Shown here in pieces: positions 7,328-49,644 of a stretch of 64,000 bases of DNA. The position numbers and the translations under genes were made by a program. Below the pieces are notes generated by a model, which was not told where the DNA came from, did no database searches, and saw only the letters and a program-made list of their open reading frames with translations. Numbering within the stretch: the stretch's first letter is position 1; each line of letters opens with the position of its first letter. The stretch is from Promethearchaeati archaeon (GTDB taxonomy: Archaea; Asgardarchaeota; Heimdallarchaeia; Heimdallarchaeales; Heimdallarchaeaceae), in NCBI GenBank assembly GCA_013166775.1, contig JABLTJ010000001.1:224009-288008 (forward strand), written 5' to 3'.

Positions 7328-8416
7328 TTAATCATGTAATATTGATTTAAAAACCAAGTATTTTTCAACCAAAACTGTCATTTCTTCTTCAGTCATATTT
7401 GGATTTAAGTCAGCTAATATGTTTTTGATTCCTTGTTTAACGTATGCTGTAGGATTTTTACAACTAATTAAACAAATGAAGTTATCATGTTCCTCAATAA
7501 TTAAAGAATAAACTCCTAAATCGATTTCTTTGGGAAAAACTTCTTTACCAATCAGTTCTCCAGCGAAAGAAGAAAAAGCTCTTGTAATGCTTGGTATCAT
7601 CATTCCCTCCAAACCTGATCCTTTTTGAAGTGATGCTGAATAAACAACATAGCCATCTTTGTTATAAATAAAAATTGAGGATATTTCAGATGAGTAATAA
7701 AAAGCTTCAACTCCACCAAGGTAAATTGAATAACTCATAAGAAGAGCTCCCACAGCTACTGAAATTAATTCCATATGGAGCAAAACTATTTCGTTCGTAA
7801 TTGCGAAGATTACTTTTCTTACTATGTAGATAATAATACTGGCAAAATAAGCAATAATCACACCCACAATCATAACTAATAATGTTTTTCTATGGTTTTT
7901 TTCTAAGAACAAAATCTGTCTTATCAGGTAACCGAGTAAAACTGAACCTGCAAAAATAACTAGAAATCCATCAAAGAAAATCCACACATAACCAGTATTA
8001 GCTATATAGAAATCCAGTTTACCAGAAGTGACCTCTTGTAAAATAATGCTATAATCAGATGACAAAGTTGTACCTACTAACCCTCCAAATAGGAAGAATG
8101 CTATAACAACAAGAGTTGAATTCAATAATTGTCTCGACGTAAGGGTTCTTACAAATAATATTGTAGCAACCATTGCTATCATACTACTAATTGTGTTGAA
8201 TTTTGACAAGAATAATGCAGCACTTTCATTATGGATTTGGCTCACATAAACCAGTATCATATCCCCTATTATCCACAACATGATAAAAACAATTAATGAT
8301 ATGAAATAATAAACAGAGGTTGAGGAAGTTTTTATTTGCTTCATAATTACTAGGATCAAACCAATAATAAGTGCGATGATTGAAAAAATACCTATCCCGT
8401 AAGACACCCAAACCAT
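7328..8416 (-). CDS. Multi-pass (about 7 TM) membrane protein with C-terminal longin/roadblock-like cytoplasmic domain
   Basis: About seven hydrophobic segments, then IFIYNKDGYVVYS...ITRAFSSFAGEL...KEIDLG...LIIEE. Confidence 0.6.
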   Translation of the reverse strand: MVWVSYGIGIFSIIALIIGLILVIMKQIKTSSTSVYYFISLIVFIMLWIIGDMILVYVSQIHNESAALFLSKFNTISSMIAMVATILFVRTLTSRQLLNSTLVVIAFFLFGGLVGTTLSSDYSIILQEVTSGKLDFYIANTGYVWIFFDGFLVIFAGSVLLGYLIRQILFLEKNHRKTLLVMIVGVIIAYFASIIIYIVRKVIFAITNEIVLLHMELISVAVGALLMSYSIYLGGVEAFYYSSEISSIFIYNKDGYVVYSASLQKGSGLEGMMIPSITRAFSSFAGELIGKEVFPKEIDLGVYSLIIEEHDNFICLISCKNPTAYVKQGIKNILADLNPNMTEEEMTVLVEKYLVFKSILHD

Positions 8417-8496
8417 TGAACGAAGTTTCTATTACTTCTTTAAAATATTTACTCAACATTCATGTTATCAGGAAAAAAAGATAAATGAGTGGTGTA

Positions 8497-10416
8497 TTAT
8501 TCATAATTTTCCATTTGCTTGTGAATTTTTTCAATAAGATTCTTTATTTTTACACCGAATTCAACTTTATTTCCTCTCGATCTGACAGCTATAGTTTGTG
8601 CTTCGACTTCCTTGTCTCCAACGTTTATGATATAGGGGATTTTTTGCATAGTAGCCTGACGAATTTTATATTCCATTCTTTCCCCACTTAAATCTGCTTC
8701 AGCACGAATTCCTTCATTTTGAAAATTTAAGGAAACTTGTTTAGCATACTCTATGTGTTCATCAGTTATTGGAATGACAGTAACTTGAATTGGACTTAAC
8801 CAAACTGGTAATTTACCTGCATAATGCTCTATAAGTATAGCTAGGAATCTTTCAGTTGCTCCAAAGATTACCCTATGAATAACAAACGGTCTGTGTTTCT
8901 GTCCATCTTCTCCAATATAGTTTATATCGAATCGATCAGGAAGATTGAAATCTACTTGAATTGTGGCTAGTTGCCATCTTCTTCCTATGGCATCTTTGAC
9001 ATCTACATCTATTTTGGGACCATAAAATACTCCTTCACCAGCTTTAATTTTATATGGCAGATCCAATCTAACTAGAGCATTCTTGAGAGAACTAGTTGCG
9101 TGTTCCCATCCTTCTTCAGTTCCAATCGCTTCTTCTGGTTTGGTGCTTATGAAAAATTCCCAGTCAGTAAAACCAAAAGCTTTGTAGAAATGGTTAATCA
9201 TCTGAATAACATCAACAATCTCATCTTCTAGTTGTTCGGATAACATGAAAAGATGAGCATCATCTTGCGTAAAACTTCTAATTCTGAATAATCCGTGAAG
9301 AGCTCCAGAAAGTTCATATCTATATACAGTCCCCATCTCACCAATTCTGATAGGAAGTTCTTTGTACGAATAGGTACGGCGATTAAAAATCATCATGTGC
9401 CCTGGACAGTTCATAGGTTTCACGTACCATTTTTCTCCTTTCAGATTTACAGGAAACATATTTTCAACGTAATATTCCGTATGACCACTAGTCTGCCAGA
9501 CATTTTCCTTGTAAACATGAGGGGTTTGAACGATTTCGTATCCTGCTTTTTCATGTTCTTTATTCCAAAAATCTCTCATTACTTCCAATATTGCCCTACC
9601 TTTTGGAAAAATAAGTGGCATACCTGGTCCCCATTCATCGGCCGTATCGAATAGATCAAGTTGTCTTCCAATTATGCGATGATCTCTTTTCTTCGCTTCT
9701 TCGAGCATATTAACGTGCTTCCTCAATTCCTTTGGATTGAAGAATGCTACACCATAGACTCTCTGCAGGGATTCTCTATTAGCATCAGCTCGCCAAAATG
9801 CAGCTGAAGCATTAAGTATCTTTATAGCTTTAACTCTCTTTGTTGATGGAACGTGGGGTCCACGACATAAATCTTTGAAAGCTCCATTTCCATGCGAATA
9901 GAAGGAAACTTCTTCCGTTTCCATCTCTTTCAGAATCTCTACTTTGAATTTATTATCTTCTACTTTCTGATAATATTTGATAGCTTCTGCTAAAGACATT
10001 TCTTCTCTTAGAAATTTAGTATCTTCAGCTATTATTTCATCTACTTTTTTTTGAATTCGATCTAAATCCTCCTGAGTAAAAGGCTTTTCAATATAGAAAT
10101 CATAGTAGAAACCAACAGGCTCTATACTTGGTCCTATAGTTGGTCTTGCATTAGGAAATAATTCAACAACTGCTTCAGCCATTATATGTGCTGCACTGTG
10201 ATTAAGTACATGTAATGCTTCTTCTGATTTCTCTGTCAAGATCTCAAAGTCTGCATCATTTTCGATTACATAATGTAAATCTACTAGCTTTCCATTAATT
10301 TTAGCTGCTATGGAAGCATCTGCTAAACCTTGTCCAATTTGCAGTGCTGCATCTCGAACAGTTTTTCCCTTTGAAATTTCTAATATATTTTCATCTGGTA
10401 AAGTTAATTTAACCAT
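8497..10416 (-). CDS. thrS: Threonine--tRNA ligase, bacterial/eukaryotic type (TGS + editing domain)
   Basis: HSAAH, DLCRGPH, KPMNCP, FYGPKID, HRVIFG. Start set at ATG 10416 behind a GGTGA RBS. Confidence 0.96.
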   Translation of the reverse strand: MVKLTLPDENILEISKGKTVRDAALQIGQGLADASIAAKINGKLVDLHYVIENDADFEILTEKSEEALHVLNHSAAHIMAEAVVELFPNARPTIGPSIEPVGFYYDFYIEKPFTQEDLDRIQKKVDEIIAEDTKFLREEMSLAEAIKYYQKVEDNKFKVEILKEMETEEVSFYSHGNGAFKDLCRGPHVPSTKRVKAIKILNASAAFWRADANRESLQRVYGVAFFNPKELRKHVNMLEEAKKRDHRIIGRQLDLFDTADEWGPGMPLIFPKGRAILEVMRDFWNKEHEKAGYEIVQTPHVYKENVWQTSGHTEYYVENMFPVNLKGEKWYVKPMNCPGHMMIFNRRTYSYKELPIRIGEMGTVYRYELSGALHGLFRIRSFTQDDAHLFMLSEQLEDEIVDVIQMINHFYKAFGFTDWEFFISTKPEEAIGTEEGWEHATSSLKNALVRLDLPYKIKAGEGVFYGPKIDVDVKDAIGRRWQLATIQVDFNLPDRFDINYIGEDGQKHRPFVIHRVIFGATERFLAILIEHYAGKLPVWLSPIQVTVIPITDEHIEYAKQVSLNFQNEGIRAEADLSGERMEYKIRQATMQKIPYIINVGDKEVEAQTIAVRSRGNKVEFGVKIKNLIEKIHKQMENYE

Positions 10417-10649
10417 CTTATCACCTGTAAAATTTTTCTCAAGAGGACCGCGCACCTACTTAACAGTAGGGAAATTAAAAAACTGCTATTTAATTGTTTC
10501 ATATTCACCTAGCATTGTCCTCAAACGATTTATCTCAATTTCATTTAAAAAATTTATTACTTGTTCAATTTCCAGAAATTTGATGAAAAGAAGCAAAAAG
10601 TTAATATTATTTTCGTTTTCTTTGGAAACAGAAAATACCTTTTTGTATT

Positions 10650-12212
10650 TTGATACATGATATGGAGTTACTTGATATGAAACGGAAACATTTTGCTAGC
10701 CTTTCTATTTTTCAAATAATGGCTATGTTCCGAAGAGGTATTTTTTACTTTTTCCTTAGTATTTATCTTAAAGAATATCTTCACGTCTCAAATACTGAAA
10801 TGACATTGTTTGCAACTCTACCAATGATCGCTAATATTGCATCACAGTCAGGTTTATGGGGACGAATTTCTGATAAATTCAAGAAAAGAAGACTCTTGAT
10901 TGTTTTTGGGGAACTTTATGCTGCGATAGGTTATTTGGTTGTATATTGGATTCACAAAGGATACGAAAAAGAAGGAGCTTTAAGAGCTGCTGCATTTGCA
11001 ATTATAATAGGTTTTACAATAGTTGAAGCAGGTTGGAGTAGTAGTAATCTAGGGTGGTCAACTCTTATTGCTGACCTGACAAGAGATTCTGAAAGAAGTA
11101 GAATAATGGGATTACTTCAATTCATCGGTGGGATTGGGAATATTTTAGGAGTTACAGCAAGTGGATTTCTGTATCTTGGTGGAAAAGGTTTTTCTGAAGG
11201 TTATTTATTCTTCATCTCATCAGGAATAATGATTTTTAGTATTGTAGCTCTATTCATGATACCGGAATCTTACGCAGATTTGGAAAAAAGTGATGATAAA
11301 GAGATTGTTGAGCTCGTAGAAGAACAACAAAATATGATAAGGGAAGCAAAAGAGAACTCTGGTTCATTCAAATGGGAATGGAAAGTATTTGTCTGGCTTC
11401 TAGTTATCCTTGCTATAATTAATATTGGAGGAAACAGCATAAATCAAATGGTGAACATACACGTACGTTTACCTAGTACATTCAATGCTTCAGACATAAT
11501 TGTTGCTCAGTTGCGGAATACTACGAATATATCAATGATTATTGCAGGTTTAGTAATCGGTTTTCTTGCAAAGAAATTTGGTGATGGTAAGATGTTACTT
11601 GCAGGATTTGTCCTTGCTTTTATTGGAACCATAGCTCTACCATTTGCACCTAGCATAGTATTTGTCTTCGTCTATATGGCAACTAGAGGCTTTACAAGAG
11701 TCTGGGTACAAACAACGGCTTATTCAATGGTTAACCGAGTGGTTCCTTTAGAAAAAAGAGGAAGAATGATGGGTTATTATAATGCTACTTTTTACCTCTC
11801 GTGGGGTTTGGGAGGAACAATACTTACTGGTCCTATTGCTGATGCTATTGTAGGATCTAATTTGATAGTCATACTTACTTATACTATTCTTGGTATAATC
11901 GCAGTTGGAGCCTGGTCTTTCCTTATTATTTCTAAATTCACTAATATAAGGAGTAAAATGAAATTATTTATTGGAACTGCAATTGGGTGGTTTGGTCTAT
12001 CCGGAGTTTTAGCTGCTTTTGTTGCTAAATCCTTTGCTTCATTTGTTATTTCCTACGGATCTTCAGATTCTTATGCTTACAAAGTTACATTTCTTATTGC
12101 TGCTGTTTTAATCGCAATAGGAACACTTACTTATATACTCTATCGACCCAAGAAGTATAATGTTCTGATTCTCGACAAAGCTGTTGGCACATTGAATGAA
12201 GCTAACAGTTAA
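10650..12212 (+). CDS. MFS transporter
   Basis: GRISDKFKKRR motif A, many TM helices, KRGRMMG in the second half. Confidence 0.88.
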   Translation: MIHDMELLDMKRKHFASLSIFQIMAMFRRGIFYFFLSIYLKEYLHVSNTEMTLFATLPMIANIASQSGLWGRISDKFKKRRLLIVFGELYAAIGYLVVYWIHKGYEKEGALRAAAFAIIIGFTIVEAGWSSSNLGWSTLIADLTRDSERSRIMGLLQFIGGIGNILGVTASGFLYLGGKGFSEGYLFFISSGIMIFSIVALFMIPESYADLEKSDDKEIVELVEEQQNMIREAKENSGSFKWEWKVFVWLLVILAIINIGGNSINQMVNIHVRLPSTFNASDIIVAQLRNTTNISMIIAGLVIGFLAKKFGDGKMLLAGFVLAFIGTIALPFAPSIVFVFVYMATRGFTRVWVQTTAYSMVNRVVPLEKRGRMMGYYNATFYLSWGLGGTILTGPIADAIVGSNLIVILTYTILGIIAVGAWSFLIISKFTNIRSKMKLFIGTAIGWFGLSGVLAAFVAKSFASFVISYGSSDSYAYKVTFLIAAVLIAIGTLTYILYRPKKYNVLILDKAVGTLNEANS

Positions 12213-12234
12213 GAATATTTACTGAATTTACAGT

Positions 12235-13386
12235 ATGAATACTATGAAAATTGAGAAACAAGATGTTATTCCAATTCTAAAGAAGCTAATTAATATTAAG
12301 ACCGAAAATCCACCTGGTTTTACTATTGAAGCTGTCCAGTATCTTTCTAATATTTTCAATGAAGTTGGGATAAAAAATAGAATCCAAGCATATGGAGAAA
12401 AAAGAGCTAATATTATTGCGGAATATGGTGAGGGAGAAAAGACGATTATTCTAACTGGGCATCTCGATACGATTCCAGCAGGTGATGAAACTAAATGGAA
12501 ATTTCCTCCTTTTTCAGGAAAAGAAGAAGAAGGAAGAATCTATGGTAGAGGATCAACTGATATGAAAGGAGCAATTGCTGCATATGTTGCAGTAATGACT
12601 CTATTGAAGCAAAAGAACGTGAAATTAAGTAAGAAAGTTATCTTTCTCGGAACATCTGATGAAGAACTAAACATGGATGGGTCTCTATTTGCAAAAAATG
12701 AAGGGATAATGGAGGGATGTGAGTTTGTCGTAATTGGTGAACCAACAGAGTTGAAAATTGGGGTAGCTGAAAAAGGAACTTTGTGGATTAAGATAAGGAT
12801 TGAAGGAAAGTCTGCTCATGGATCAACTCCTCATTTAGGTGTCAGTGCAATTGAAGCAGCAGCTAAATTAATTCCAGATTTAAAGGAAGTAGTGCCAGCT
12901 TTTGAACATAAGATTCTAGGAAAATCCTCTCTGAATATAGGTAAAATTTCAGGCGGAACTGTTGTAAATGTGGTTCCAGAACTCTGCGAAATTGAATGCG
13001 ATTTTAGACTAGTAGCTGACGATCTTCGCGATGAGATTAAGGAAAAATTCAATGCTGTTCTTAATAAATTCAATCAAGAGGAAGAAGCGAAGGCCAGTTT
13101 CGCAATTTTACATGAGCTACCTGCTATAGAAATGAAATATGTATCAAAATTCTTAGAGGATCTTAAGATTAAAGCAAAGAAAGCAGGTGCAGCAGAAATA
13201 ATTGGTGTTAATTATGGAACTGATGGTGCTATGTTAGTTCCTGATTATGGAACACCATTTGTAATTATGGGGCCAGGAAAATTAGATCAATTACATGTAA
13301 CTGATGAATACACGGAAATAGAAGAAGTAATTGACTACGCAAACATAATTTATGAAGCTTTAATAGACAATTTTTCTGTGACATGA
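12235..13386 (+). CDS. M20 family metallopeptidase (ArgE/DapE-like)
   Basis: GHLDT, GRGSTDMKG, DEE, GEPT, terminal H..DE. Confidence 0.92.
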   Translation: MNTMKIEKQDVIPILKKLINIKTENPPGFTIEAVQYLSNIFNEVGIKNRIQAYGEKRANIIAEYGEGEKTIILTGHLDTIPAGDETKWKFPPFSGKEEEGRIYGRGSTDMKGAIAAYVAVMTLLKQKNVKLSKKVIFLGTSDEELNMDGSLFAKNEGIMEGCEFVVIGEPTELKIGVAEKGTLWIKIRIEGKSAHGSTPHLGVSAIEAAAKLIPDLKEVVPAFEHKILGKSSLNIGKISGGTVVNVVPELCEIECDFRLVADDLRDEIKEKFNAVLNKFNQEEEAKASFAILHELPAIEMKYVSKFLEDLKIKAKKAGAAEIIGVNYGTDGAMLVPDYGTPFVIMGPGKLDQLHVTDEYTEIEEVIDYANIIYEALIDNFSVT

Positions 13387-13471
13387 GCTAAAATCCTTTT
13401 TTTCCTCTTTTGTTCGGGAAATGCAAATATTAAAAAGAAAGAATGAGCCATAATTACCTTGAAACTGGAAT

Positions 13472-14338
13472 GTGTTTCAGATTAACGCTAATCACTCAAA
13501 TCAAGAAAAATTCAAAGAAAGATATCAGAAATTGATTAAGATTACTGATATTTCAAAAAAAATTCAAAGAGATGATATTAGTCTACCTCCTAATGAATCT
13601 CGTATATTACTAGACTTTGAAGAAGCTATTTTGGAATGTATGAATTATTCTTGGGAAATAGACTCCATGCTAGAAGATGAAAATCTCTCACCTTATGAGT
13701 ATGATCAATTAGTTTCCCGTCTGGAAAAACTATCTGAAGTAATTGATATTCTGTTGGAAAAACACAAGAGCAATGTCGAAACTCTAAACAAAGTTATTTC
13801 AATTTATAAGATTTTAAAGAGTCTAATTAAGGAAATTCAATTTGTTGAAGATATAGTAATTATCTTAACAAAGACGTACACCGTTGAAAAGAAAACTGCT
13901 TACACAATTAATGAAAGTGAATATTTGATTGCTCTAGAGGCTTTAGATTCGTTCTTTAAGAAGAGCAAAATTAAGGCAGAGGAAAGAAAAGAATCCAAAT
14001 TAGAAAGAGAATTACTTGAGCTTGCTAAAATTATTGGGAAACTAGAAGAAAAACATGCCTTCAATTCACTTTATACTTCCCCAACAATCTTAATGAATGA
14101 AATCATTTCTTCTCTGGAAATCCTTGAAGCGATGATAGAACCCTTCTATCATATGGTTAAAGGTAATTACTATTCAGAAGAAATTAGTTCTGCAAAAATT
14201 GGTTTAGTTCTACTCTCTCAAAATAAAGAACTTGATGTTGGTGAAACTATTAAGATACGAGGTTTATTTAGTAGAAAAAGAGGAATTGAGGAATTAGAAG
14301 AATTGAGTGATGTTTTACGTTCTTTAGAAATCGATTAA
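13472..14338 (+). CDS. Hypothetical alpha-helical protein
   Basis: 288-aa ORF rich in E/K/L with no recognisable motif; start uncertain. Confidence 0.6.
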   Translation: MFQINANHSNQEKFKERYQKLIKITDISKKIQRDDISLPPNESRILLDFEEAILECMNYSWEIDSMLEDENLSPYEYDQLVSRLEKLSEVIDILLEKHKSNVETLNKVISIYKILKSLIKEIQFVEDIVIILTKTYTVEKKTAYTINESEYLIALEALDSFFKKSKIKAEERKESKLERELLELAKIIGKLEEKHAFNSLYTSPTILMNEIISSLEILEAMIEPFYHMVKGNYYSEEISSAKIGLVLLSQNKELDVGETIKIRGLFSRKRGIEELEELSDVLRSLEID

Positions 14339-14390
14339 CTTTTGTTTTTTCAAGAATAAAGTTTTTAACAAATACATTAAAATTGAGTGT

Positions 14391-15863
14391 ATGCAAGAAA
14401 GCTCCAGTAATTTAGAAGACCTTGTAGCTTACGGAATTAAGTGTTGCGAGAAAAAGGGAGTAGAGTATGCTGATGTAAAATATATGGATACAAGAATGCA
14501 AAATATATCTTACAAGAATGAAGCTTTAGAACAGCTAAGTAATATCGATAAGCGAGGTATAGGGATTAGATGTATACTAAATAAGAGTTGGGGATTCGCT
14601 AGTACAAATGAGTTAACAAGAGATAGCATTACTGAATTAGCGGAAAAAGCAATGAAGATTACGAAGGCTTCTTCAATGGTTAAGAAATTTGATATTGAAC
14701 TTGCTGACGAACCTGTTCATGAAGATAATAAAATGACCCCCATTAAGAAAGATCCTTTTAAAATTGAGTTAGCTGAAAAAATGGATGTTCTTCAGCAAAG
14801 TGCTAAAATAATACGTGAATATTCAGATAGAATCAAAGTAGCTACTAGTCATTTTGTTAGTAGACAAGATCATATGATATTGTATACAACTGAAGGATCA
14901 AAAATAGATCAAACTATTCTTTGGTGTGGTGGAGGAGTATCTGCAACAGCAGTTGAAGGTGGAGAAGTACAAACACGTAGTTTACCAGCAAGTTTCAGAG
15001 GTGATTTTCACACTGAGGGTTATGAATACTTTGAGAATTTAAAACTCATAGAAATTTCAGAACAAACAGCTAAAGAATCTGTAAAGCTTTTATCAGCAAA
15101 GAAGATGCCTACTGAACAAGCTACTGTAATATTAGGTCACTCTCAATTAGCACTACAGGTTCATGAGAGCTGTGGTCACCCAACTGAACTGGATAGAGCT
15201 TTAGGGTATGAAGCTGCTTATGCTGGAACAAGTTTCCTAACAACAGACCTACTAGATACCAATTTCAAATATGGAAACGAATTAGTAACAATGGTTGCTG
15301 ATGCTACGGTTCTTGGAGGATTGGGCACTTTCTTCTATGATCACGAAGGTGTTAAAGCTCAAAGAAATATCATGGTCGATAAAGGAATTTTTACAGGCTT
15401 TATGTCCTCAAGAGAAACTGCAAAAGCCATAGGATTGAATAGAAGTTCTGGTGCTGCGAGATCAATGGGATATGATAGAATTCCTATTGTAAGAATGACT
15501 AATGTTAATCTAGAACCTGGAGACTGGGAATTTGATGAACTAATTGGTGATACAAAGAAAGGATATTTCTTGGAAACTAATAGAAGCTGGAGTATAGATG
15601 ATATCCGAATGAATTTCCAATTTGGTACTGAAATAGGTTGGAAAATAGAAAACGGAGAAATGACCGAAATGATAAAGAATCCTACATATGAAGGAATAAC
15701 ACCAGAATTTTGGGGAAATGTTAGTGGAATATGTAATAAAAACCATTGGAAGATTTTTGGAACACCAAACTGTGGAAAAGGAGAACCTGGACAAGCAGCT
15801 TACGTAGGTCATGGAATCGCTCCTACAAGATTCGATAATGTTCGTGTAGGAATTCTAAAATAA
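14391..15863 (+). CDS. tldD: TldD metalloprotease subunit
   Basis: HESCGH (HExxGH), YDHEG, RMTN, CGKG. Confidence 0.93.
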   Translation: MQESSSNLEDLVAYGIKCCEKKGVEYADVKYMDTRMQNISYKNEALEQLSNIDKRGIGIRCILNKSWGFASTNELTRDSITELAEKAMKITKASSMVKKFDIELADEPVHEDNKMTPIKKDPFKIELAEKMDVLQQSAKIIREYSDRIKVATSHFVSRQDHMILYTTEGSKIDQTILWCGGGVSATAVEGGEVQTRSLPASFRGDFHTEGYEYFENLKLIEISEQTAKESVKLLSAKKMPTEQATVILGHSQLALQVHESCGHPTELDRALGYEAAYAGTSFLTTDLLDTNFKYGNELVTMVADATVLGGLGTFFYDHEGVKAQRNIMVDKGIFTGFMSSRETAKAIGLNRSSGAARSMGYDRIPIVRMTNVNLEPGDWEFDELIGDTKKGYFLETNRSWSIDDIRMNFQFGTEIGWKIENGEMTEMIKNPTYEGITPEFWGNVSGICNKNHWKIFGTPNCGKGEPGQAAYVGHGIAPTRFDNVRVGILK

Positions 15864-16754
15864 AATATTCCGAATAAACTCTCCTATTTTCTTTATAGCT
15901 TTCTTGCTCTCAGGCATGAGATTTCCAAAAATTTGAAACACATGCCACATTCCTGGCCAAATGTCAGCTGTTACATCCACTTTTGCTTTTATTGCTTTTT
16001 CAGCGAAGCGTGTCGTATCATCAAGAATAATCTCTTCTGTACCTGTTTGTAGTAATAGAGGTGGTAATCCTTCTAAATCTGCATAAAGTGGAGAAGCTAG
16101 CGGATTCTTACTGTCTGTGCCCTTAAGATATATTTCAGCTGATTGTTGAAGTTCAATCTTAGTTGCCATTATTTCCTCCTTTGTTTTCGTCTCAACAGAA
16201 TCACCAGTTAATGCTAAATCTGTCCAAGGAGATAGACATACTGCAGCAGCTGGAAGAGATATAGTTTCCTCACGTAGTTTGATCAAAGTTGCTAGTGCTA
16301 ATCCTCCACCAGCAGAATCTCCCGCAATTATTATTTTGTTGGACTTAATCCCTTTTTGATCTATTAACCATTTGTAAGCAGTAATTACATCCTCTAAACC
16401 AGCTGGAAATGGATTTTCTGGGGCAAGACTGTAATCCAGACACAGGACTGGAATTTCTGAAGTTTTACCTATGCGAGCTGCTATACCTCGATGAGTATTT
16501 AGGGAACCTGCATTATAAGATCCTCCGTGTAGATATATGATTGCGCAATCTTTGTAACTCTTTGGAGGAAACAGCCACTCACCAGAAATTCCTTCGATCG
16601 ATACTTGTTCAACTTTTACATTTTTTGGCTTTCGAAATAGAAAAACTCTGTTTTCTAGATTTTTTCTGTTTTCTTCTACATTCAAAATACCTTCATCTTT
16701 CATTGACATTAATCTCATGATTATGATGAATAATCTTGCACGTAAGCTAACCAT
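15855..16754 (-). CDS. HSL-family alpha/beta hydrolase (esterase/lipase)
   Basis: HGGS oxyanion motif, GDSAGG nucleophile, LSPW, HVFQ. Confidence 0.92.
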   Translation of the reverse strand: MVSLRARLFIIIMRLMSMKDEGILNVEENRKNLENRVFLFRKPKNVKVEQVSIEGISGEWLFPPKSYKDCAIIYLHGGSYNAGSLNTHRGIAARIGKTSEIPVLCLDYSLAPENPFPAGLEDVITAYKWLIDQKGIKSNKIIIAGDSAGGGLALATLIKLREETISLPAAAVCLSPWTDLALTGDSVETKTKEEIMATKIELQQSAEIYLKGTDSKNPLASPLYADLEGLPPLLLQTGTEEIILDDTTRFAEKAIKAKVDVTADIWPGMWHVFQIFGNLMPESKKAIKKIGEFIRNILF

Positions 16755-33711: not shown

Positions 33712-34857
33712 TTAGATACAACGATATACTGAGGTTGGACCGATCTCTTTGTATTCCTTACGAGTTACCCACAATTTAGCAAAGGTCTTTAGGGAGCTTA
33801 AGATACTTCCACCAATCCAGACTGAATATCTTCTTTCAGGGGGAGCAATAATCTTTACTTCCATTGTCTCTGGAACTAATTCTGTTAGTTCTTTGTGTAG
33901 ACGTTCCTTAAGACCGGGGAACATTGTTGAACCACCAGAAAGTACTATATTAGCGTATAAATCTCGTCTAAGATCTACATCACAATTCTGAATGGACCTG
34001 TAAATTAATTCGTCTAGTGGGTTTTCTTCTGAACCAATAGCACCTGGATTGAAGAACAATTCAGGAGCCATGAAACGTTCAGCGCCTATTGTAAGTGTTT
34101 CACCATCAGGTAAGGTATATGTTTTCTCCATTCCAGAAACTTTTTCTGCAAGTTTTAGTTCTTTCTCTGGATCTAGAGCAACATAGCAAAGACGTTCCTT
34201 AATATCACGAACTATTTCTCTTTCAGCACTACTTGATAAAGAGTAACCTCTTTGTCTTAATAGTCTTCTGAGATAATCAGTTACGTCACGACCCCCTATG
34301 TCAGATCGATGTATAGCGTGACTAATAGCAAATCCTTCGTATACAGGTACTATGTGTGTAACTCCATCACCTGAGTCTACAACAATACCAGTTGTACGAC
34401 CAGATGCATAAAGTGACAGAATAGCCTGCATTGAAATATACATTGCAGGAACATTAAAAGTATCGAACATTAGCTCTGCCATCTTTTCCTTATTTTGATT
34501 CTTATTCAAAGGAGGTTCTGTTAGCAGAACTGGATGTTCATTAGGATTGACTCTTAAATCATTGTAGAAAGTATAATGCCAAATACGCTCCATGGCATCC
34601 CAATCTTGTACTTGTCCATGCTCAACAGGATAAACAAGTTTCAAAACACCTCGGAGGTTTATTGCTTCCTCGCCAATGTAATACTCACGCACATAGTGCT
34701 CAACATCAGTCATGATTATTTGATATTTTGGATAACCAATAATTGTTGGGAAAACGCTTCTGGGTTGATCTTCTCCGGCAAAACCGTTTTTTGTAAAGCC
34801 AGTACCATTATCTATAACCAGTGGTTTATTCTGAATCATCTCTTCCATAGTTATCAC
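33712..34857 (-). CDS. Asgard actin (Lokiactin-type)
   Basis: [56 protein letters not shown]. Confidence 0.97.
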
Positions 34858-35467: not shown

Positions 35468-37288
35468 ATGAACAAAAAAGTACTTAGTTTATGTATAGTA
35501 GTTTTGTTTGGTTTTTCCATGATTATGGGAGCAACACAAGCTCAAGAAACAGCAATAAACATTGTGTTTAATATAAACTTGCTCTCACCAAATACAAGTC
35601 CAGCTCGAAATCAATGGTCCTTGTTAATGGAACAAACCTTACCAAAAATTGGAATCGGCATAACCTTCCACGAATCTACCGGATGGGGTAACATCGGTCC
35701 ACGAACTTGGTCTTATCCAGTTGGTATCGAGTATGATTATGTCCCACTCTATGAATACGGTGGTTACGACCTTCTCTTTGTAGGATGGTCATGGCCATTA
35801 GATCTTAACCTACAAGGGTTATATGAAACAGCAGCTATAACACCTAATGGTGATAACCATTATCAGTATAGCAATCCTACATATGATGCTCTATTAGCAG
35901 ATTATATGTCTGAATTTGACATACCAACACAATTGAGTTTGGCAAAGGACCTTCAAGCAATTCTCTATGAAGATCAACCAGCTATTCCAATAATATATGC
36001 AAGATCCCTCTTTGGATTAAAAGAAGGACTTACAGGTATTGATCACTTACTATTGGCCAGTTCTGGTCAACGTATGGAATACTGGGATGACCCAGCCGAT
36101 CATATAATCAACTATGGTATCCCAGCTGATTTAAGAGAACCAAACGTTTTCGCAGCTGAATCATTTTATGATTGGCAATGGATGTACCAAGTTTATGGAA
36201 ATATAATGAAGAGAGAACAAGGAGTGTATACTTGGGAACCTGAAGTAGCATCAGCAATTTCTACAACAGTAGATCTTGTTGCTGGAACACAAACCGTTGA
36301 AATAGAATTGGATCCACTAGCTACATTCAGTGATGGAGAAGCTGTCCTTCCTGAAGATGTTGTCTACAGTTACCAAATGCATATGACACCAGCATCTGGT
36401 TCAGGAGATTATTCAACCATGGTATATTGGTTTGGTGACAACTCTTCTATCGAAGTCAATGCAGCTACTGGAAATGTGGCTGGAGGAAATGTTACACTAG
36501 AAATGACTGGTCCATTCAACCTATGGCAAAGCTTACTTGAACGAGAAATACTTGATAAAAGCGATGTTGAACCACGTATTACTTCTCGTGGATGGGGAAT
36601 TCTTAACATCATGCCTCTCAGTGCTGCAGATGTTAACGGCGATGGTGCTGCACTTGTCAAATCTTGTGGTCCAATGATGCTAGAATCATTTGATACAACA
36701 CAAAGTGTTGTAAAGCTAGTACCTAATCCATATTGGCATGGAGACACAGTAGATTTAGTTGAATTCTATCTAACCTATATTGGTACTAAAGATTCAGCTG
36801 TATCAGATTTAATTACTGGAGCAATTGACATTATGGATGCTCAATTCTTCCCAGATTGGACAGACTTTGAAGGTGTTACTGGAATTGAAGGTGTTCTTGT
36901 TAAAGATCCTGGTCACCAAGAAATGGGGATCAACATGCTTCACCCAGTAATGGGTACTGGTGAATTGACACCTGTTGGTACAGAAGAAGCTGCTAAATGG
37001 GTAAGAAAAGCAATCAGTCATGCATGTCCTCGTGATATCATTGTAGAAGAAATTATGAATGGTTTAGGGGCTGCAGCAACAACTCCTGTTCCAGACGCAG
37101 TCGTTGGATATGATGACACATTAGAACCTTATGCATACGATCTTGATATAGCAATCGACTATATGGAAGATGCTGGATTTACAGTCTTAACAACTGTTGA
37201 AACTGAACCTACAGGAATTACTGGATTAGTGTTCTTATCCTTCCTCGGATTAGCTGCCTTAGAAGCACTAAGAAGACGTAAGAAATAA
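35468..37288 (+). CDS. Family 5 (peptide/nickel) ABC substrate-binding protein, membrane-anchored, apparently circularly permuted
   Basis: Signal peptide; FSDG..V..EDV, GP..L, NPY, VRKAI, YSNP.YD; C-terminal TM followed by RRRKK. Confidence 0.85.
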   Translation: MNKKVLSLCIVVLFGFSMIMGATQAQETAINIVFNINLLSPNTSPARNQWSLLMEQTLPKIGIGITFHESTGWGNIGPRTWSYPVGIEYDYVPLYEYGGYDLLFVGWSWPLDLNLQGLYETAAITPNGDNHYQYSNPTYDALLADYMSEFDIPTQLSLAKDLQAILYEDQPAIPIIYARSLFGLKEGLTGIDHLLLASSGQRMEYWDDPADHIINYGIPADLREPNVFAAESFYDWQWMYQVYGNIMKREQGVYTWEPEVASAISTTVDLVAGTQTVEIELDPLATFSDGEAVLPEDVVYSYQMHMTPASGSGDYSTMVYWFGDNSSIEVNAATGNVAGGNVTLEMTGPFNLWQSLLEREILDKSDVEPRITSRGWGILNIMPLSAADVNGDGAALVKSCGPMMLESFDTTQSVVKLVPNPYWHGDTVDLVEFYLTYIGTKDSAVSDLITGAIDIMDAQFFPDWTDFEGVTGIEGVLVKDPGHQEMGINMLHPVMGTGELTPVGTEEAAKWVRKAISHACPRDIIVEEIMNGLGAAATTPVPDAVVGYDDTLEPYAYDLDIAIDYMEDAGFTVLTTVETEPTGITGLVFLSFLGLAALEALRRRKK

Positions 37289-37556: not shown

Positions 37557-40500
37557 ATGGTTAAGGTTGTTGGTGTATTCAAAAATCTTGTTTCTTCACC
37601 TCATAAATTGGTTAAAATCCAAATACCTAGAGAAAAAAGCAACATATTATTAAGCAATATAGAAGACATAGATTTCTTTGAACAAGTTATAGTTGATCCA
37701 CAAAGTCCTAAAGAACAGGCAAGAATACAAAATTTAGTTGACAAGTTTAAAGATTATAAAAAAAGGTTAATTCATTTTTGCTCAATTCTGCAAATTTCTT
37801 TAGCTGAATTACCACAATTTAGAGAAAAGGATTCCTCTCTTCTTTTAAATCTTAATGGTCTTACCACAGATCTTGAAGTTTTTTTTGAAAAGAATGAAGG
37901 GAACATAACAACTAAATTTGAGAACCTTCAACAATTGAGAAAGGAAGAAAGAATTCTTTCATCTTTGTTGCTATTTCAGACTCAAACTGAACAAGATGTG
38001 TTCTCTGTAGATTTGTTGACATCAAGCTCAAGCACTTATACTTTTCTTGGTGAGATTCCTGCTTCTTACGAAGAATTAATCCGTTTTTACTTAATGGAAA
38101 TCACTTCCAATCAAGCGTTTTTCTGGAGTACTCCTTCTGATGGAAGCGGGTATAAGATTTTACTCTGTATAACTACAATGGAGTATAAGAATCAAATTGA
38201 GGAAATTTTAAATGATAATTATTTTGACTCAACAAAATTAGATTTGGACGTTCTCAAATCACTTGAAAATCTTTCTAAAGAGAATTCGATTGTAGAATCG
38301 CATCAAAAAATAACAGCAGATATAGCTGAAATAGAGCAAAGCTTACAGAATCTCTCCCTGAATATTAAGGAACAATCTATTAACTTCCTGTCTTTAATTC
38401 TGAAGAGCTTAAGAATTCTATTAATTGAGGAAAAAGGAAGAACAACAGATAAAGATTTTACAATTTGGGCCTGGGTAAAAAAGAAAGATTATGAAATTAT
38501 GATAAGTGAAATAACCACTGTTTTAGGTTTTGAACCCAAAGTGTCAATATTAGATGACATTCCTTTCCCCCACAAAAAGACAAAGCAGGAAGAGGAAGAA
38601 GAAATAATCATAAAACCTTTAGAATCTTATGAGGAGGAAGAAGCTTTACATGTACCTCACTTAACTCATAGAGGAACCAAAGCTGAAGGTGGTTTTCTTT
38701 TTCCACAAAAATCCTCTTTCATTAAACTTGAATCAAGTGAAAAACATTCAAGAGAATTCATCTCTGTAATTCATTCCTTAAATGCAATTCATCCAATTAA
38801 AGTAGGTTCCTTGAATAAAGAAACTATTGAGAAACTTAATGAGCAAAAAATAGAACTTAATCAATATTTAGCAAGAATCAAGAAGATAAGCGAAGCGTTG
38901 AATATTCAAACTCTAGAAGTAAATATTGAGGAGAAATATCAACTAGTAGATGATTTACCACATTCAAAAGCATTTATTGAAAATTTCTTGCGTGATTTTG
39001 AAGAAACAATATTAAAACAAACAAAGGAATATAATCAATTAGAAAGACAAAAGGAGCAAATAGAACTCTATTTGCCATTTGAACAAGAATTGAAAGAAAG
39101 AGGAATGGATGTAGATTTACTTGAAGGTGGATTCCAAACAATAACTCTTTTGGGGTCAATTCCTAGCAACCACTATAAGGCAGTTAATTTCTTCTTAAAA
39201 GAGGTAACAGATAGCAATATGCTGTTATGGACATCAGATCCAGTAAGTTCGAGTAAGAATGAAAAAAATATTTTACTAATAACCTTGAAAGAGTATGAGA
39301 CTCCCATATTAAGGGTTCTCAACGAATACTCTTTCCTACCTATTGAATTCGATTTAGATATTTTCCAACAGGATGTATCGATTGAAGAAACTAAAAATCA
39401 GCTCGAAAAACAAATATTGGAATCAGAAGTTGTATTAGGGGAATTAAAGGAACAAATTATTGAGAAACTTGTTGCAGCTAATGAATTAATTCAAATAGAA
39501 TTAGATAGAATTCAAGCTACAGAGTTCTGTCAAGTTGCTGAAAATAAAATAACCTTATGGGGATGGATACCAGAAAAAAAGATCAAGGAACTCAATAAAT
39601 TAAACGAAAAATTCCCTGCAGAACTTAAGGTTACATTTAATGCTAAAGTACCTCTAGTTAGTCCTTCAATAACAAAGAAGGGTCAAGTATTTGGTGCCGT
39701 TAGAGGGTTGGTAGGAGGAATTGGAGAACCTAATCCTCACGAAGTAGACCCCTATTCAATTGTAAGGTTTACTTTCCCACTATTATTTGGTATAATGTTT
39801 GCCGATGTTGGTCACGGGATTATGCTAGCTCTTATTGCTGCATTCTTAACAATTAGAAAACGAAGAAAGAAAATCAAACCAGATGAATCAATTTCTGGTT
39901 ATTTATATGCTGGTTCCGAACTTCTATTATTCTGTGGTTTGTCGGCAACTATTTTTGGTTTCCTTTTTGGATCCTTGCTAGGTGATGAAGAATTCATACC
40001 CGAACTAATGCATAGTATAGGTATAGATTGGATACCACTGATTAATCCATTGCATGAAACCAAATTATTTCTAGTTGTTGCACTCATACTAGGTTTTCTA
40101 ATGATTCAGCTTGGAATATGGCTAAAGGTCTATCAAAAATTAAAATATGGCCACAGTGTTGCTTCATGGGCTGCCCCCATATCCTTATCTATCGTTTATG
40201 TAGGAATATTTGCACTTCTTTACAATATAATTGCTAAAGATGTTGAATGGCAAGCTTTAAACATCACATTACCCTTGATGCCAGAATGGATGGTTTGGTT
40301 AGTTGCAGCAGCACCAATACTTTTTGTTTTCGAATTCTTACATGCAAAATCTGATGGAATAATGGACGCAATTGATCACATCATAGCCTTAATTTCAAAC
40401 ACATTATCTTTCAGCCGAATTATGGCACTACTATTAGTTCATGCAATTCTCAGCGGATTACCATTTACACTTACAGGTGTCCATTCACCATTAAGCACCG

Positions 40501-40700
40501 CATGGTACTGGTGGATTGTTGGAATTCTAGTGGGTTTATTCATAATAATTCCAATAGAGGGGCTTCTCTCCTTTTTGAATACACTGAGGTTGCACTGGGT
40601 GGAATGGTTTTCGAAATTTTACGTTGGAGATGGAACTGCATACAAACCACTCACTGAAGAGTCAGATTATATTGATTTTGTACCATCTAAAGGTAGTTGA
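37557..40700 (+). CDS. atpI: A/V-type ATP synthase subunit I (a) with duplicated N-terminal soluble domain
   Basis: EVDP, FGIMFADVGHG, NTLSFSRIMAL (essential Arg), LRLHWVEWFSKFY; 1047 aa. Confidence 0.92.
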   Translation: MVKVVGVFKNLVSSPHKLVKIQIPREKSNILLSNIEDIDFFEQVIVDPQSPKEQARIQNLVDKFKDYKKRLIHFCSILQISLAELPQFREKDSSLLLNLNGLTTDLEVFFEKNEGNITTKFENLQQLRKEERILSSLLLFQTQTEQDVFSVDLLTSSSSTYTFLGEIPASYEELIRFYLMEITSNQAFFWSTPSDGSGYKILLCITTMEYKNQIEEILNDNYFDSTKLDLDVLKSLENLSKENSIVESHQKITADIAEIEQSLQNLSLNIKEQSINFLSLILKSLRILLIEEKGRTTDKDFTIWAWVKKKDYEIMISEITTVLGFEPKVSILDDIPFPHKKTKQEEEEEIIIKPLESYEEEEALHVPHLTHRGTKAEGGFLFPQKSSFIKLESSEKHSREFISVIHSLNAIHPIKVGSLNKETIEKLNEQKIELNQYLARIKKISEALNIQTLEVNIEEKYQLVDDLPHSKAFIENFLRDFEETILKQTKEYNQLERQKEQIELYLPFEQELKERGMDVDLLEGGFQTITLLGSIPSNHYKAVNFFLKEVTDSNMLLWTSDPVSSSKNEKNILLITLKEYETPILRVLNEYSFLPIEFDLDIFQQDVSIEETKNQLEKQILESEVVLGELKEQIIEKLVAANELIQIELDRIQATEFCQVAENKITLWGWIPEKKIKELNKLNEKFPAELKVTFNAKVPLVSPSITKKGQVFGAVRGLVGGIGEPNPHEVDPYSIVRFTFPLLFGIMFADVGHGIMLALIAAFLTIRKRRKKIKPDESISGYLYAGSELLLFCGLSATIFGFLFGSLLGDEEFIPELMHSIGIDWIPLINPLHETKLFLVVALILGFLMIQLGIWLKVYQKLKYGHSVASWAAPISLSIVYVGIFALLYNIIAKDVEWQALNITLPLMPEWMVWLVAAAPILFVFEFLHAKSDGIMDAIDHIIALISNTLSFSRIMALLLVHAILSGLPFTLTGVHSPLSTAWYWWIVGILVGLFIIIPIEGLLSFLNTLRLHWVEWFSKFYVGDGTAYKPLTEESDYIDFVPSKGS

Positions 40701-40701
40701 A

Positions 40702-41694
40702 ATGTCAATCGGAGATATTAGTTATTTAAAAGGAAGAGCTCATGGAATAATTGGAAAAATATTGACAAAATCTCAAATCAGCTTACTACTATCAGCTAAA
40801 AATCTAACAGAACTGAGAGCTGCTTTTACACAAACTCCCTATGACTCAATTATTGGTGATTTGAACTTTGAAACTCAAATTTCTGATGTAGCAAGAAGTT
40901 TCAAGAACTCGTATGCTGATCTTCTGGTTAGGTTCTACAAGCAATCTTCTTCCTCAATGAAAAAGAAAATACAGTTTTTCAGTGAAAGATATAATGCTGA
41001 AAATCTTAGAATAATTCTTCATGGAATTCACATTGATATGAATCACGAGGATATTATAGCCCGTTTGATTCCTGTAGCTAATTACTCCTTAGACTATTAC
41101 AAAAAACTTCTTTCATTGCCTATCCAGCAAATTATTTCAGAACAAAAAGAACCTATTTTACAAAAACAACTAAGGAGGGCATTTGAGGAGTTTAAGAAAA
41201 CTGAACGTTTCACCCCTTTGGAATCCGCAATAGATCAATATGTGTATTCTATTCTACCTAAAGTTTCTGTTCATTATGAGATGTATGTTAACATGAAAAA
41301 CATATTATCTCTGTGTAGATGTTTAACACTGAATATCCCTGCGTACAGGTATATTCTCCCAAACCCATTTATTGCTAAGGGTCTTAATTCTAATTCAATT
41401 TCTGAAGTACTTGAAAAATATAATTACTCTCCATATTCCGCTGTTTTCTCTCCATATATAGGGCAGAAAGAGATTCCAATACATACTCTCGAATTTGCAG
41501 TAGAGCGATACTTATTAAAAATTTGGCGAAAAGCTTTCCGCTATTCTACTGTTTTTAATTCTGATTCAATTGTGGGTTTCTTTGAAATAAAACTAGCTGA
41601 AACAATGGATGTTATTAGGTTAATCGTTGGAGTAAATGCAGGCTTTAGTGAGCAAGAGATAAGAGATAGTCTACTCTACTATTCTATACTCTAG
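40702..41694 (+). CDS. atpC: A/V-type ATP synthase subunit C (d)
   Basis: YLKGRAHG..GKIL, TPY, ENLRIIL, E.AID; ATG 1 bp after the atpI stop. Confidence 0.75.
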   Translation: MSIGDISYLKGRAHGIIGKILTKSQISLLLSAKNLTELRAAFTQTPYDSIIGDLNFETQISDVARSFKNSYADLLVRFYKQSSSSMKKKIQFFSERYNAENLRIILHGIHIDMNHEDIIARLIPVANYSLDYYKKLLSLPIQQIISEQKEPILQKQLRRAFEEFKKTERFTPLESAIDQYVYSILPKVSVHYEMYVNMKNILSLCRCLTLNIPAYRYILPNPFIAKGLNSNSISEVLEKYNYSPYSAVFSPYIGQKEIPIHTLEFAVERYLLKIWRKAFRYSTVFNSDSIVGFFEIKLAETMDVIRLIVGVNAGFSEQEIRDSLLYYSIL

Positions 41695-41743: not shown

Positions 41744-42127
41744 TTAAGATGTTAAAACATCAACAGTTTCAGGAACATATTTTTTAATCACTTGCATTGC
41801 AAGTCCAACATTATGTAAATCTCTACTAGCACCAATTAAGATATACTCTCCAGCGCTAGCTAAAATTGTAAAACCTTCTTCTCCTCTAATTAAAACTTGT
41901 TCAAGATCTCCATGAACTAGATTTCCAGTTACCATTTTTCCAGTTGATAATATGGCAGATGATACCGCACTTAATAGATCGGGATCTGTTCCTTTTTCAG
42001 AGAAAAAAGCAACTTTTATTCCTTCAGCATTCACAACTGCTAATGCTTCTAAATCACATCCTAAAGAAATCTGTTTAAGTATTCTAACAAGCTGTTTTCT
42101 TTGTCCTGATGATAAATCTATAGACAT
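41744..42127 (-). CDS. Roadblock/LC7 domain protein
   Basis: AVVNAEG, LSAVSSAIL, LEQVLIRGEEG, NVGLA. Confidence 0.88.
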   Translation of the reverse strand: MSIDLSSGQRKQLVRILKQISLGCDLEALAVVNAEGIKVAFFSEKGTDPDLLSAVSSAILSTGKMVTGNLVHGDLEQVLIRGEEGFTILASAGEYILIGASRDLHNVGLAMQVIKKYVPETVDVLTS

Positions 42128-49341: not shown

Positions 49342-49644
49342 TTAGAATACTATGAGTATTGCTACTAACAATCCATAAATAGCAACAGCTTCGATAAGTA
49401 CTATAAACAAGAAAGCTTTTCCAAAAATTTCTGGTTTTTCAGTTATTGCACCTACAGCTGCACTTCCTGCCATACCCATTCCGATAGCTGCACCAACTCC
49501 TGAAATACCTACTGCTAGTGCTGCAGCAAATGGAGTTAAGTCTCCTGGTTCAGCTGCCAATACACTATTGGAAGCTAAAACAATTACAATTATTAGAATT
49601 GCAAATATAAAGAATATTTTATTCGGTTTGGTTTTTACAAACAT
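49342..49644 (-). CDS. atpK: A/V-type ATP synthase subunit K (c, proteolipid)
   Basis: GxxGxGAAIGMG, EKPE.FG, IEAVAIYG with the ion-binding Glu. Confidence 0.93.
   Translation of the reverse strand: MFVKTKPNKIFFIFAILIIVIVLASNSVLAAEPGDLTPFAAALAVGISGVGAAIGMGMAGSAAVGAITEKPEIFGKAFLFIVLIEAVAIYGLLVAILIVF

Follow-up and report, generated by a model that had tools for sequence, protein, structure and literature searches.

Tandem duplication of the entire collar domain in an A/V-type ATPase subunit I of the archaeal family Heimdallarchaeaceae

Analysis of a 64,000-nucleotide stretch of the Promethearchaeati archaeon assembly GCA_013166775.1 (contig JABLTJ010000001.1, positions 224,009 to 288,008 of the forward strand; hereafter the window) revealed a long subunit I (a) of an A/V-type ATPase, in which the entire collar domain is duplicated in tandem and followed by one intact membrane domain. 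Peripheral-stalk number is a textbook distinction among rotary ATPases, with one stalk in F-type, two in A-type and three in V-type enzymes, and the stalks are anchored by a collar made from the N-terminal domain of subunit a (a-NT). In A-type enzymes the N-terminal domain of subunit a/I alone forms the collar and holds two stalks of subunits E and G (EG; PMC6131620), and the three EG stalks of eukaryotic V-ATPases are held by a collar that combines a-NT with the separate subunits C and H (PMC6131620). The gene and the domains of its product are listed below, with the extra and the canonically placed N-terminal domains designated repeat 1 and repeat 2, respectively.

37557..40700, + strand: A/V-type ATPase subunit I (a), long form, 1047 amino acids (aa), TGA stop at 40698-40700 (list of open reading frames (ORFs), Pfam PF01496)
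37587..38573, + strand: residues 11-339, repeat 1, extra cytoplasmic N-terminal collar domain with proximal lobe, coiled coil and distal lobe (hhalign, AlphaFold2 (AF2), VIA-align, ratio of nonsynonymous to synonymous substitution rates (dN/dS))
38574..38696, + strand: residues 340-380, inter-repeat linker, predicted to be disordered (predicted local distance difference test (pLDDT), length conservation, dN/dS)
38697..39662, + strand: residues 381-702, repeat 2, N-terminal domain in the canonical position, contiguous with the membrane domain (Pfam, secondary-structure order)
39663..40697, + strand: residues 703-1047, membrane (proton half-channel) domain, with the essential arginine R954 at 40416-40418

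Two complete collar domains in one chain

The ORF list and the translation showed that all 1047 codons lie in a single frame without an internal stop. The protein matched Pfam PF01496 (V_ATPase_I) with 123.9 bits (cut-off 30.7), and the match covered residues 397-806 and the C-terminus; it starts at about residue 397, and Pfam is blind to the first ~345 residues.

Single-sequence BLAST of the protein against itself aligned residues 19-310 with residues 389-674 at 23% identity over 294 aa and 87.4 bits, compared with 21.9±2.9 bits (maximum 32) for 300 shuffled sequences and 24.3 bits for the reversed sequence, and the composition-corrected E value was 9e-18. When an alignment of 28 full-length homologues was split into two halves to give family profiles, hhalign aligned the repeat-1 and repeat-2 profiles with a probability of 100% and an E value of 6.9e-44 over 320 columns. 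The tandemly duplicated N-terminal stator domain proposed in the initial annotation was thereby borne out, the motifs that it had paired by eye fell in register in the hhalign alignment, and the end that it had given for the element, 39660, coincides with the end of repeat 2 (residue 702, nucleotide 39662). Since the profile alignment spans residues 11-339 versus 381-702, the copied unit is the whole cytoplasmic N-terminal domain of ~330 aa, and it includes the V-P...K-K tail, which in canonical proteins leads into the first membrane helix. Predicted AF2 models showed the same order of elements in both copies, namely strand-helix-strand, two long helices, a strand/helix lobe, a long return helix and strand-helix-strand. 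In the full-length model, pLDDT was mostly 80-90 in both repeats and below 50 for residues 342-383.

The linker between the repeats was 33-38 aa long in all 28 homologues, and this constant length argues for a geometric constraint between the two N-terminal domains. Its sequence is variable. The earlier description of the linker as acidic and histidine-containing applies to the window protein, in which residues 337-372 include 10 D/E, 5 K/R and 4 H, and does not extend to the family, in which the linker is of mixed charge and conserved in length.

The membrane domain is present once and is intact, as had been stated initially; R954 of the S-x-S-R motif was invariant in the 28 homologues, as part of an invariant block L950-R954 (L-S-F-S-R), and the alignment also contained an H-W-V-E motif. 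In a sequence search of the PDB, repeat 2 plus the membrane domain matched V-ATPase a subunits best (9det_a / human a4, E 4.5e-24; yeast Stv1, E 3.6e-21), ahead of the only bacterial match listed, E. hirae NtpI (E 4.2e-16), and the membrane domain aligned with the C-terminal part of a subunits of known structure. The long subunit I thus keeps the features of its family, with a PF01496 score above the cut-off, a membrane domain with the essential arginine and an N-terminal fold of lobe, coiled coil and lobe, but departs from the canonical single N-terminal domain per chain in carrying two complete copies while remaining within PF01496.

The fold of repeat 1 was examined with a model of this domain alone (AF2; pLDDT 82.9, predicted template modelling score (pTM) 0.73). 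Foldseek placed it closest to a-NT of V-ATPases and to the corresponding domain of Thermus subunit I, with E values of 6e-12 to 1e-9 and a query template modelling score (TM) of at most 0.67. VIA-align gave Z 18.7 with a root-mean-square deviation (rmsd) of 4.0 Å over 302 residues against yeast Vo subunit a (8eas_a), Z 15.7 against Thermus 6r0z_N and Z 10.6 against 3rrk; against a-NT of the yeast, mammalian and Thermus enzymes, Z was 15-19 over ~300 residues. The Foldseek comparison with Vma5 (subunit C) that had been proposed at the outset did recover the yeast protein (1u7l, E 1.2e-7), but with a TM of 0.24 and an rmsd of 14.9 Å, and so did not favor a kinship specific to subunit C. A shape search of the ESM Atlas with repeat 1 returned canonical subunit I clusters only. 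The repeat-1 profile found nothing meaningful among PDB chain sequences (best E 0.087, to unrelated proteins); its kinship was detectable only via repeat 2, the single-domain relatives and the fold. The modelled fold therefore identifies repeat 1 as a complete a-NT domain that is not specifically C-like.

Compared with prokaryotic subunit I (Thermus thermophilus 6r0z chain N, Meiothermus ruber I-NT 3rrk, Enterococcus hirae NtpI 8wci), the long form shares the PF01496 family, the membrane domain with the essential arginine, the N-terminal fold of two alpha/beta lobes and a coiled coil, and an adjoining C/d gene. It differs in having two tandem N-terminal domains instead of one, 1047 aa instead of roughly 620-730, a distinct conserved surface on repeat 1, and ATPase genes that are scattered in the genome rather than gathered in one operon. 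Eukaryotic subunit a (yeast Vph1/Stv1, mammalian a1-a4) is the closest match to repeat 1 in structure and to repeat 2 plus the membrane domain in PDB sequence, but has one N-terminal domain and a collar completed by the separate subunits C and H, whereas the extra element here is covalent and is an a-NT copy.

Distribution and origin of the doubled domain

A word-indexed search with the window protein retrieved about 44 clusters of proteins of 1036-1076 aa at 38-88% identity, and the next matches were canonical proteins of 630-650 aa that align with the C-terminal 35-40% of the query only. The homologues that bear a taxonomic name were labelled Heimdallarchaeaceae or Heimdallarchaeota. A PF01496 survey of 201 Asgard genomes found ORFs of 1043-1070 aa restricted to this one family, Heimdallarchaeaceae, and the other Asgard subunit I genes were mostly 600-865 aa long, which agrees with the initial remark that the protein is longer than canonical forms. 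In a search of the order with repeat 1, two N-terminal domains occurred in one ORF in 28 of 30 Heimdallarchaeaceae genomes from four genera, while three sister families contained single-domain proteins only (684-732 aa). Separately, the survey revealed two other Asgard families with subunit I ORFs of 815-865 aa, a eukaryote-like length with an extra ~150 aa (e.g. G006:C1:436760-437704, G047:C166, G028:C337, G017:C4).

In a maximum-likelihood tree of 53 N-terminal domains, repeat 1 (support 100/100) and repeat 2 (98/95) each formed a clade, and the two together formed a clade (100/99) with every single-domain protein outside. The closest single-domain protein, of 674 aa, was sister to this joint clade (95/88), and the internal topologies of the repeat-1 and repeat-2 clades mirror one another. 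The joint clade was retained (97) when eukaryote-type a-NT was added; since the eukaryotic branches are very long and their position is unreliable, that tree was used only for the survival of this clade. Because the repeats are each other's sisters and the doubled form occurs in 28 of the 30 genomes of the family, they trace to one intragenic tandem duplication in the Heimdallarchaeaceae stem. We regard the two-copy anatomy together with this single-duplication history as practically certain.

An exhaustive profile search for a free-standing protein resembling repeat 1, as a split form or an analogue of subunit C, yielded nothing beyond long forms, canonical subunit I proteins and short fragments. 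One 286-aa match was rejected as a free-standing protein, as its ORF runs to the end of a 1-kb contig of 1.2x coverage. Another ORF of 322 aa (L009:659-1627, + strand), inside a 2.3-kb contig of 2.3x coverage, scored 300 bits to the repeat-1 profile and 95 bits to that of repeat 2. Its similarity to repeat 1 ends at residue 277, where an ORF on the opposite strand overlaps; the contig is probably chimeric, and that the ORF is a genuine free-standing gene of this kind is less likely.

No account of a doubled subunit I/a came up in full-text searches of the literature, and the database names of the homologues ("V-type ATPase 116 kDa subunit family") do not mention the doubled domain. Membership in the family is clear, and the doubled architecture appears to be undescribed in the literature searched. 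The doubling has stayed hidden in databases because Pfam misses repeat 1 and the names are generic.

Selection on repeat 1 and its possible roles

Comparison with the ortholog from one congeneric genome gave dN/dS values of 0.195 for repeat 1, 0.187 for the linker, 0.148 for repeat 2 and 0.082 for the membrane domain, and the mean pairwise identity across the family was 42%, 41%, 47% and 65%, respectively. Repeat 1 contains 20 invariant columns in the 28 homologues, at identities as low as 30%. Comparison of alignment columns showed that it retains the hydrophobic core and two motifs common to all the N-terminal domains, G-x-I...L-x-E-x-T in the distal lobe and W-G-W in the proximal lobe. As judged from these substitution patterns, repeat 1 is a selected and specialised domain rather than a decaying one. 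Of the lineage-restricted decay that the initial annotation had named as a refuting outcome, the restriction to one lineage was found; the dN/dS of 0.195 speaks against decay. A family-wide, selected doubling of a-NT predicts a stator architecture not seen before, whether a third stalk, closure of the collar or a docking arm of a new kind.

We tentatively prefer, at somewhat under an even chance, a mechanism in which repeat 1 takes part in the stator, either as a seat for a third EG heterodimer or as a brace. Repeat 2 and the membrane domain would retain the canonical functions, holding two EG stalks and forming the proton half-channels; repeat 2 is assigned this role because it is contiguous with the membrane domain and keeps the canonical charged residues. 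Repeat 1, which a ~40-residue linker of fixed length joins to the proximal lobe of repeat 2, would reach around the central stalk as a second collar arm. There it might dock a third EG heterodimer on the third B subunit, which is otherwise free, or brace the existing two stalks. Such an arm would be an independently reached, covalent analogue of eukaryotic subunits C and H. The fold, the lobe motifs, the purifying selection, the linker length and the presence in 28 of 30 genomes count for a stator arm. The narrower proposal, that a covalent second a-NT carrying a third EG stalk closes the collar, is doubtful though possible; it takes up, by analogy, the earlier suggestion of a parallel to the eukaryotic architecture with repeat 1 holding the third stalk. 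If true, it would constitute an independent prokaryotic three-stalk stator, an arrangement previously thought unique to eukaryotic V-ATPases, and an example of how duplicating a domain can enlarge a collar.

Several observations weigh against a stator arm. Five charged residues that are kept in repeat 2 and in the single-domain relatives are replaced in repeat 1 (equivalents of R399, D552, E643, E648 and R651), and 45 positions are conserved in repeat 1 alone, including a polar loop at residues 45-58.

37689..37730, + strand: residues 45-58, repeat-1-specific polar loop and candidate binding surface, nearly invariant, of the type V-D-P-Q-S-P-K-E-Q-A-R-I-Q

Within the loop, V46, D47, Q49, P51, E53, A55 and I57 are invariant or nearly so; this conservation is peculiar to repeat 1 and absent from repeat 2 and the single-domain relatives. 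In the tree, the stem of repeat 1 (1.13) was three times longer than that of repeat 2 (0.39), showing faster change after the duplication. Given the five lost charges and the faster evolution, repeat 1 may no longer bind the canonical partners of a-NT, and with a conserved surface of its own in addition to the lost charges, identical EG binding by repeat 1 cannot be assumed; the conservation confined to repeat 1 points to a new partner, which would not necessarily be EG. In addition, the placement of repeat 1 relative to repeat 2 is unreliable in the full-length AF2 model, whose inter-domain geometry was not used because of its pTM of 0.44.

These features lend themselves to the main rival explanation, plausible although short of likely, in which repeat 1 is an adaptor or regulatory domain disengaged from the EG stalks. 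Its partner would be lineage-specific and could be a lipid, a different complex, a protein of the cytoskeleton or of membrane remodelling, or, for dimerisation, a second ATPase; alternatively, repeat 1 could gate assembly and activity. The 45 repeat-1-only positions with their polar loop, the loss of the five canonical charges, and the fast evolution after duplication followed by purifying selection all agree with such a role, as does the use of eukaryotic a-NT as a regulatory hub, as described in PMC10313074. On the other hand, the analysis yielded no candidate partner and no conserved neighbour in the operon except subunit d, and repeat 1 retains the whole fold with both lobes and the shared lobe motifs, which fits a stator role too.

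It is improbable that the gene gives two products, with an internal start at repeat 2 yielding a subunit I of canonical length in addition to the long form. A Shine-Dalgarno-like GAAGGTGG lies at 38684-38692, just ahead of repeat 2, and 5 of the 28 homologues have a methionine at the corresponding column, but this methionine is not conserved at the repeat-2 start column; the window has CTT (Leu 381) there, and its next in-frame codons include no ATG, GTG or TTG. An internal translation start at repeat 2 was therefore rejected for the window.

Lower still we rate the view that the doubled domain is an intermediate towards the eukaryotic V-ATPase, as the initial annotation had suggested, with a duplication older than eukaryotes and a subunit C descended from repeat 1; this seems very improbable. 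It draws on the Asgard host, on a membrane half that is closest to eukaryotic a subunits among solved structures, and on the recovery of subunit C (1u7l, E 1.2e-7) by Foldseek, in which the general likeness of lobe, coiled coil and lobe is real. Subunit C (Vma5p) has an elongated shape of head, coiled coil and foot in common with repeat 1 and is the added collar element that holds the third EG stalk (PMC6131620), so that a functional analogy is proposed for repeat 1; however, the two share no sequence-family match and superpose weakly (TM 0.24, rmsd ~15 Å), and a Pfam scan of the whole long protein at E<=0.01 listed PF01496 only and not PF03223 (V-ATPase_C). Repeat 1 is far nearer to a-NT (TM <=0.67, Z 18.7) than to subunit C. 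The clade of repeat 1 and repeat 2 (100/99, and 97 with eukaryote-type a-NT) excludes all single-domain subunit I proteins, making the repeats mutually closest, and the doubled form was seen in one family only, the other families sampled across the order, class and phylum lacking it. PF03223 had no match in the 201 Asgard genomes, a search with no positive control, and neither collar subunit C (PF03223) nor H (PF03224) was found in the 88.7%-complete genome of the window, again with no positive control and with controls that included no eukaryote. The sole c subunit found in this genome has one hairpin rather than the duplicated four-helix form of V-type proteolipids. The precursor view is largely refuted by the tree. 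Because repeat 1 arose recently, by copying of a-NT inside a gene of one archaeal family, any likeness in role to subunit C would be convergent; the duplication is late and lineage-specific, which corrects the tempting idea that it led towards the eukaryotic V-ATPase.

It is scarcely credible that repeat 1 is a relic without function, or that the long ORF is an artefact of misassembly or of gene fusion by sequencing error. Pfam misses repeat 1 and it is the faster-evolving copy, but 28 genomes and about 44 protein clusters show the same uninterrupted layout; their assemblies are independent, and some are genomes in a single contig. The dN/dS of 0.195, 20 invariant columns, a confident fold and mirrored repeat trees also speak against this view, which conservation refutes.

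The remaining ATPase genes and the locus

Genome searches in this assembly revealed one subunit I and a single set of A, B, D, E, F and c genes, and a second subunit I was not found at the completeness of 88.7%. Since this is the only subunit I found and the other subunits form a single set, the long form must serve the working rotary enzyme of this organism. A weak G candidate (C1:23280-23582) lies beside F, and there is one E gene; this fits any number of stalks and says nothing either way on a third one. The ATPase genes are scattered rather than arranged in one operon, with B-A, G?-F and D loosely grouped within 13 kb (C1:18-31 kb), the pair of subunit I and d genes 230 kb from this group, and E alone on another contig (C54:3614-4261). 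The ATPase and flanking genes in the window are as follows.

40702..41694, + strand: subunit C/d (AC39) gene, likely ATG at 40702 (Pfam PF01992, 94.9 bits)
49342..49644, - strand: proteolipid c/K subunit, one hairpin, 99-100 aa, stand-alone (genome search; Pfam PF00137 (ATP-synt_C), one domain at residues 38-97)
33712-34857, - strand: actin homologue, flanking the I-d pair (Pfam Actin, E 1e-134)
41744-42127, - strand: Roadblock/LC7 protein, flanking the I-d pair (Pfam)
35468-37288, + strand: family-5 solute-binding protein, 606 aa, directly upstream of subunit I (SBP_bac_5 match at residues 269-574 only)

The likely ATG of the d gene lies 1 base past the TGA of subunit I (sequence 40698-40704), forming an I-d pair that is also present in the congeneric genome G133 and beside the closest single-domain relative. 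Because this nearest single-domain relative already stands in a detached I-d pair, the arrangement is older than the duplication. Several congeners contain a second, compact operon of the order A-B-D-Usp-E-I-c with a divergent d (in G133, C13:246000-265999, 8592-16055 on the - strand and 7530-8588 on the + strand), whose subunit I is 684 aa long and ~26-28% identical to the long form and whose c subunit has two hairpins (162 aa); this second operon was not found in the genome of the window.

The actin homologue (E 1e-134) and the Roadblock/LC7 protein in the neighbourhood mark the organism as an Asgard archaeon. In G133 an ORF of 381 aa follows immediately 3' of d, and the proximity of actin and Roadblock genes to the I-d pair may be simple synteny. 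No transporter genes are adjacent to the gene of the 606-aa solute-binding protein. In G133, an ORF of 601 aa lies upstream of the long subunit I.

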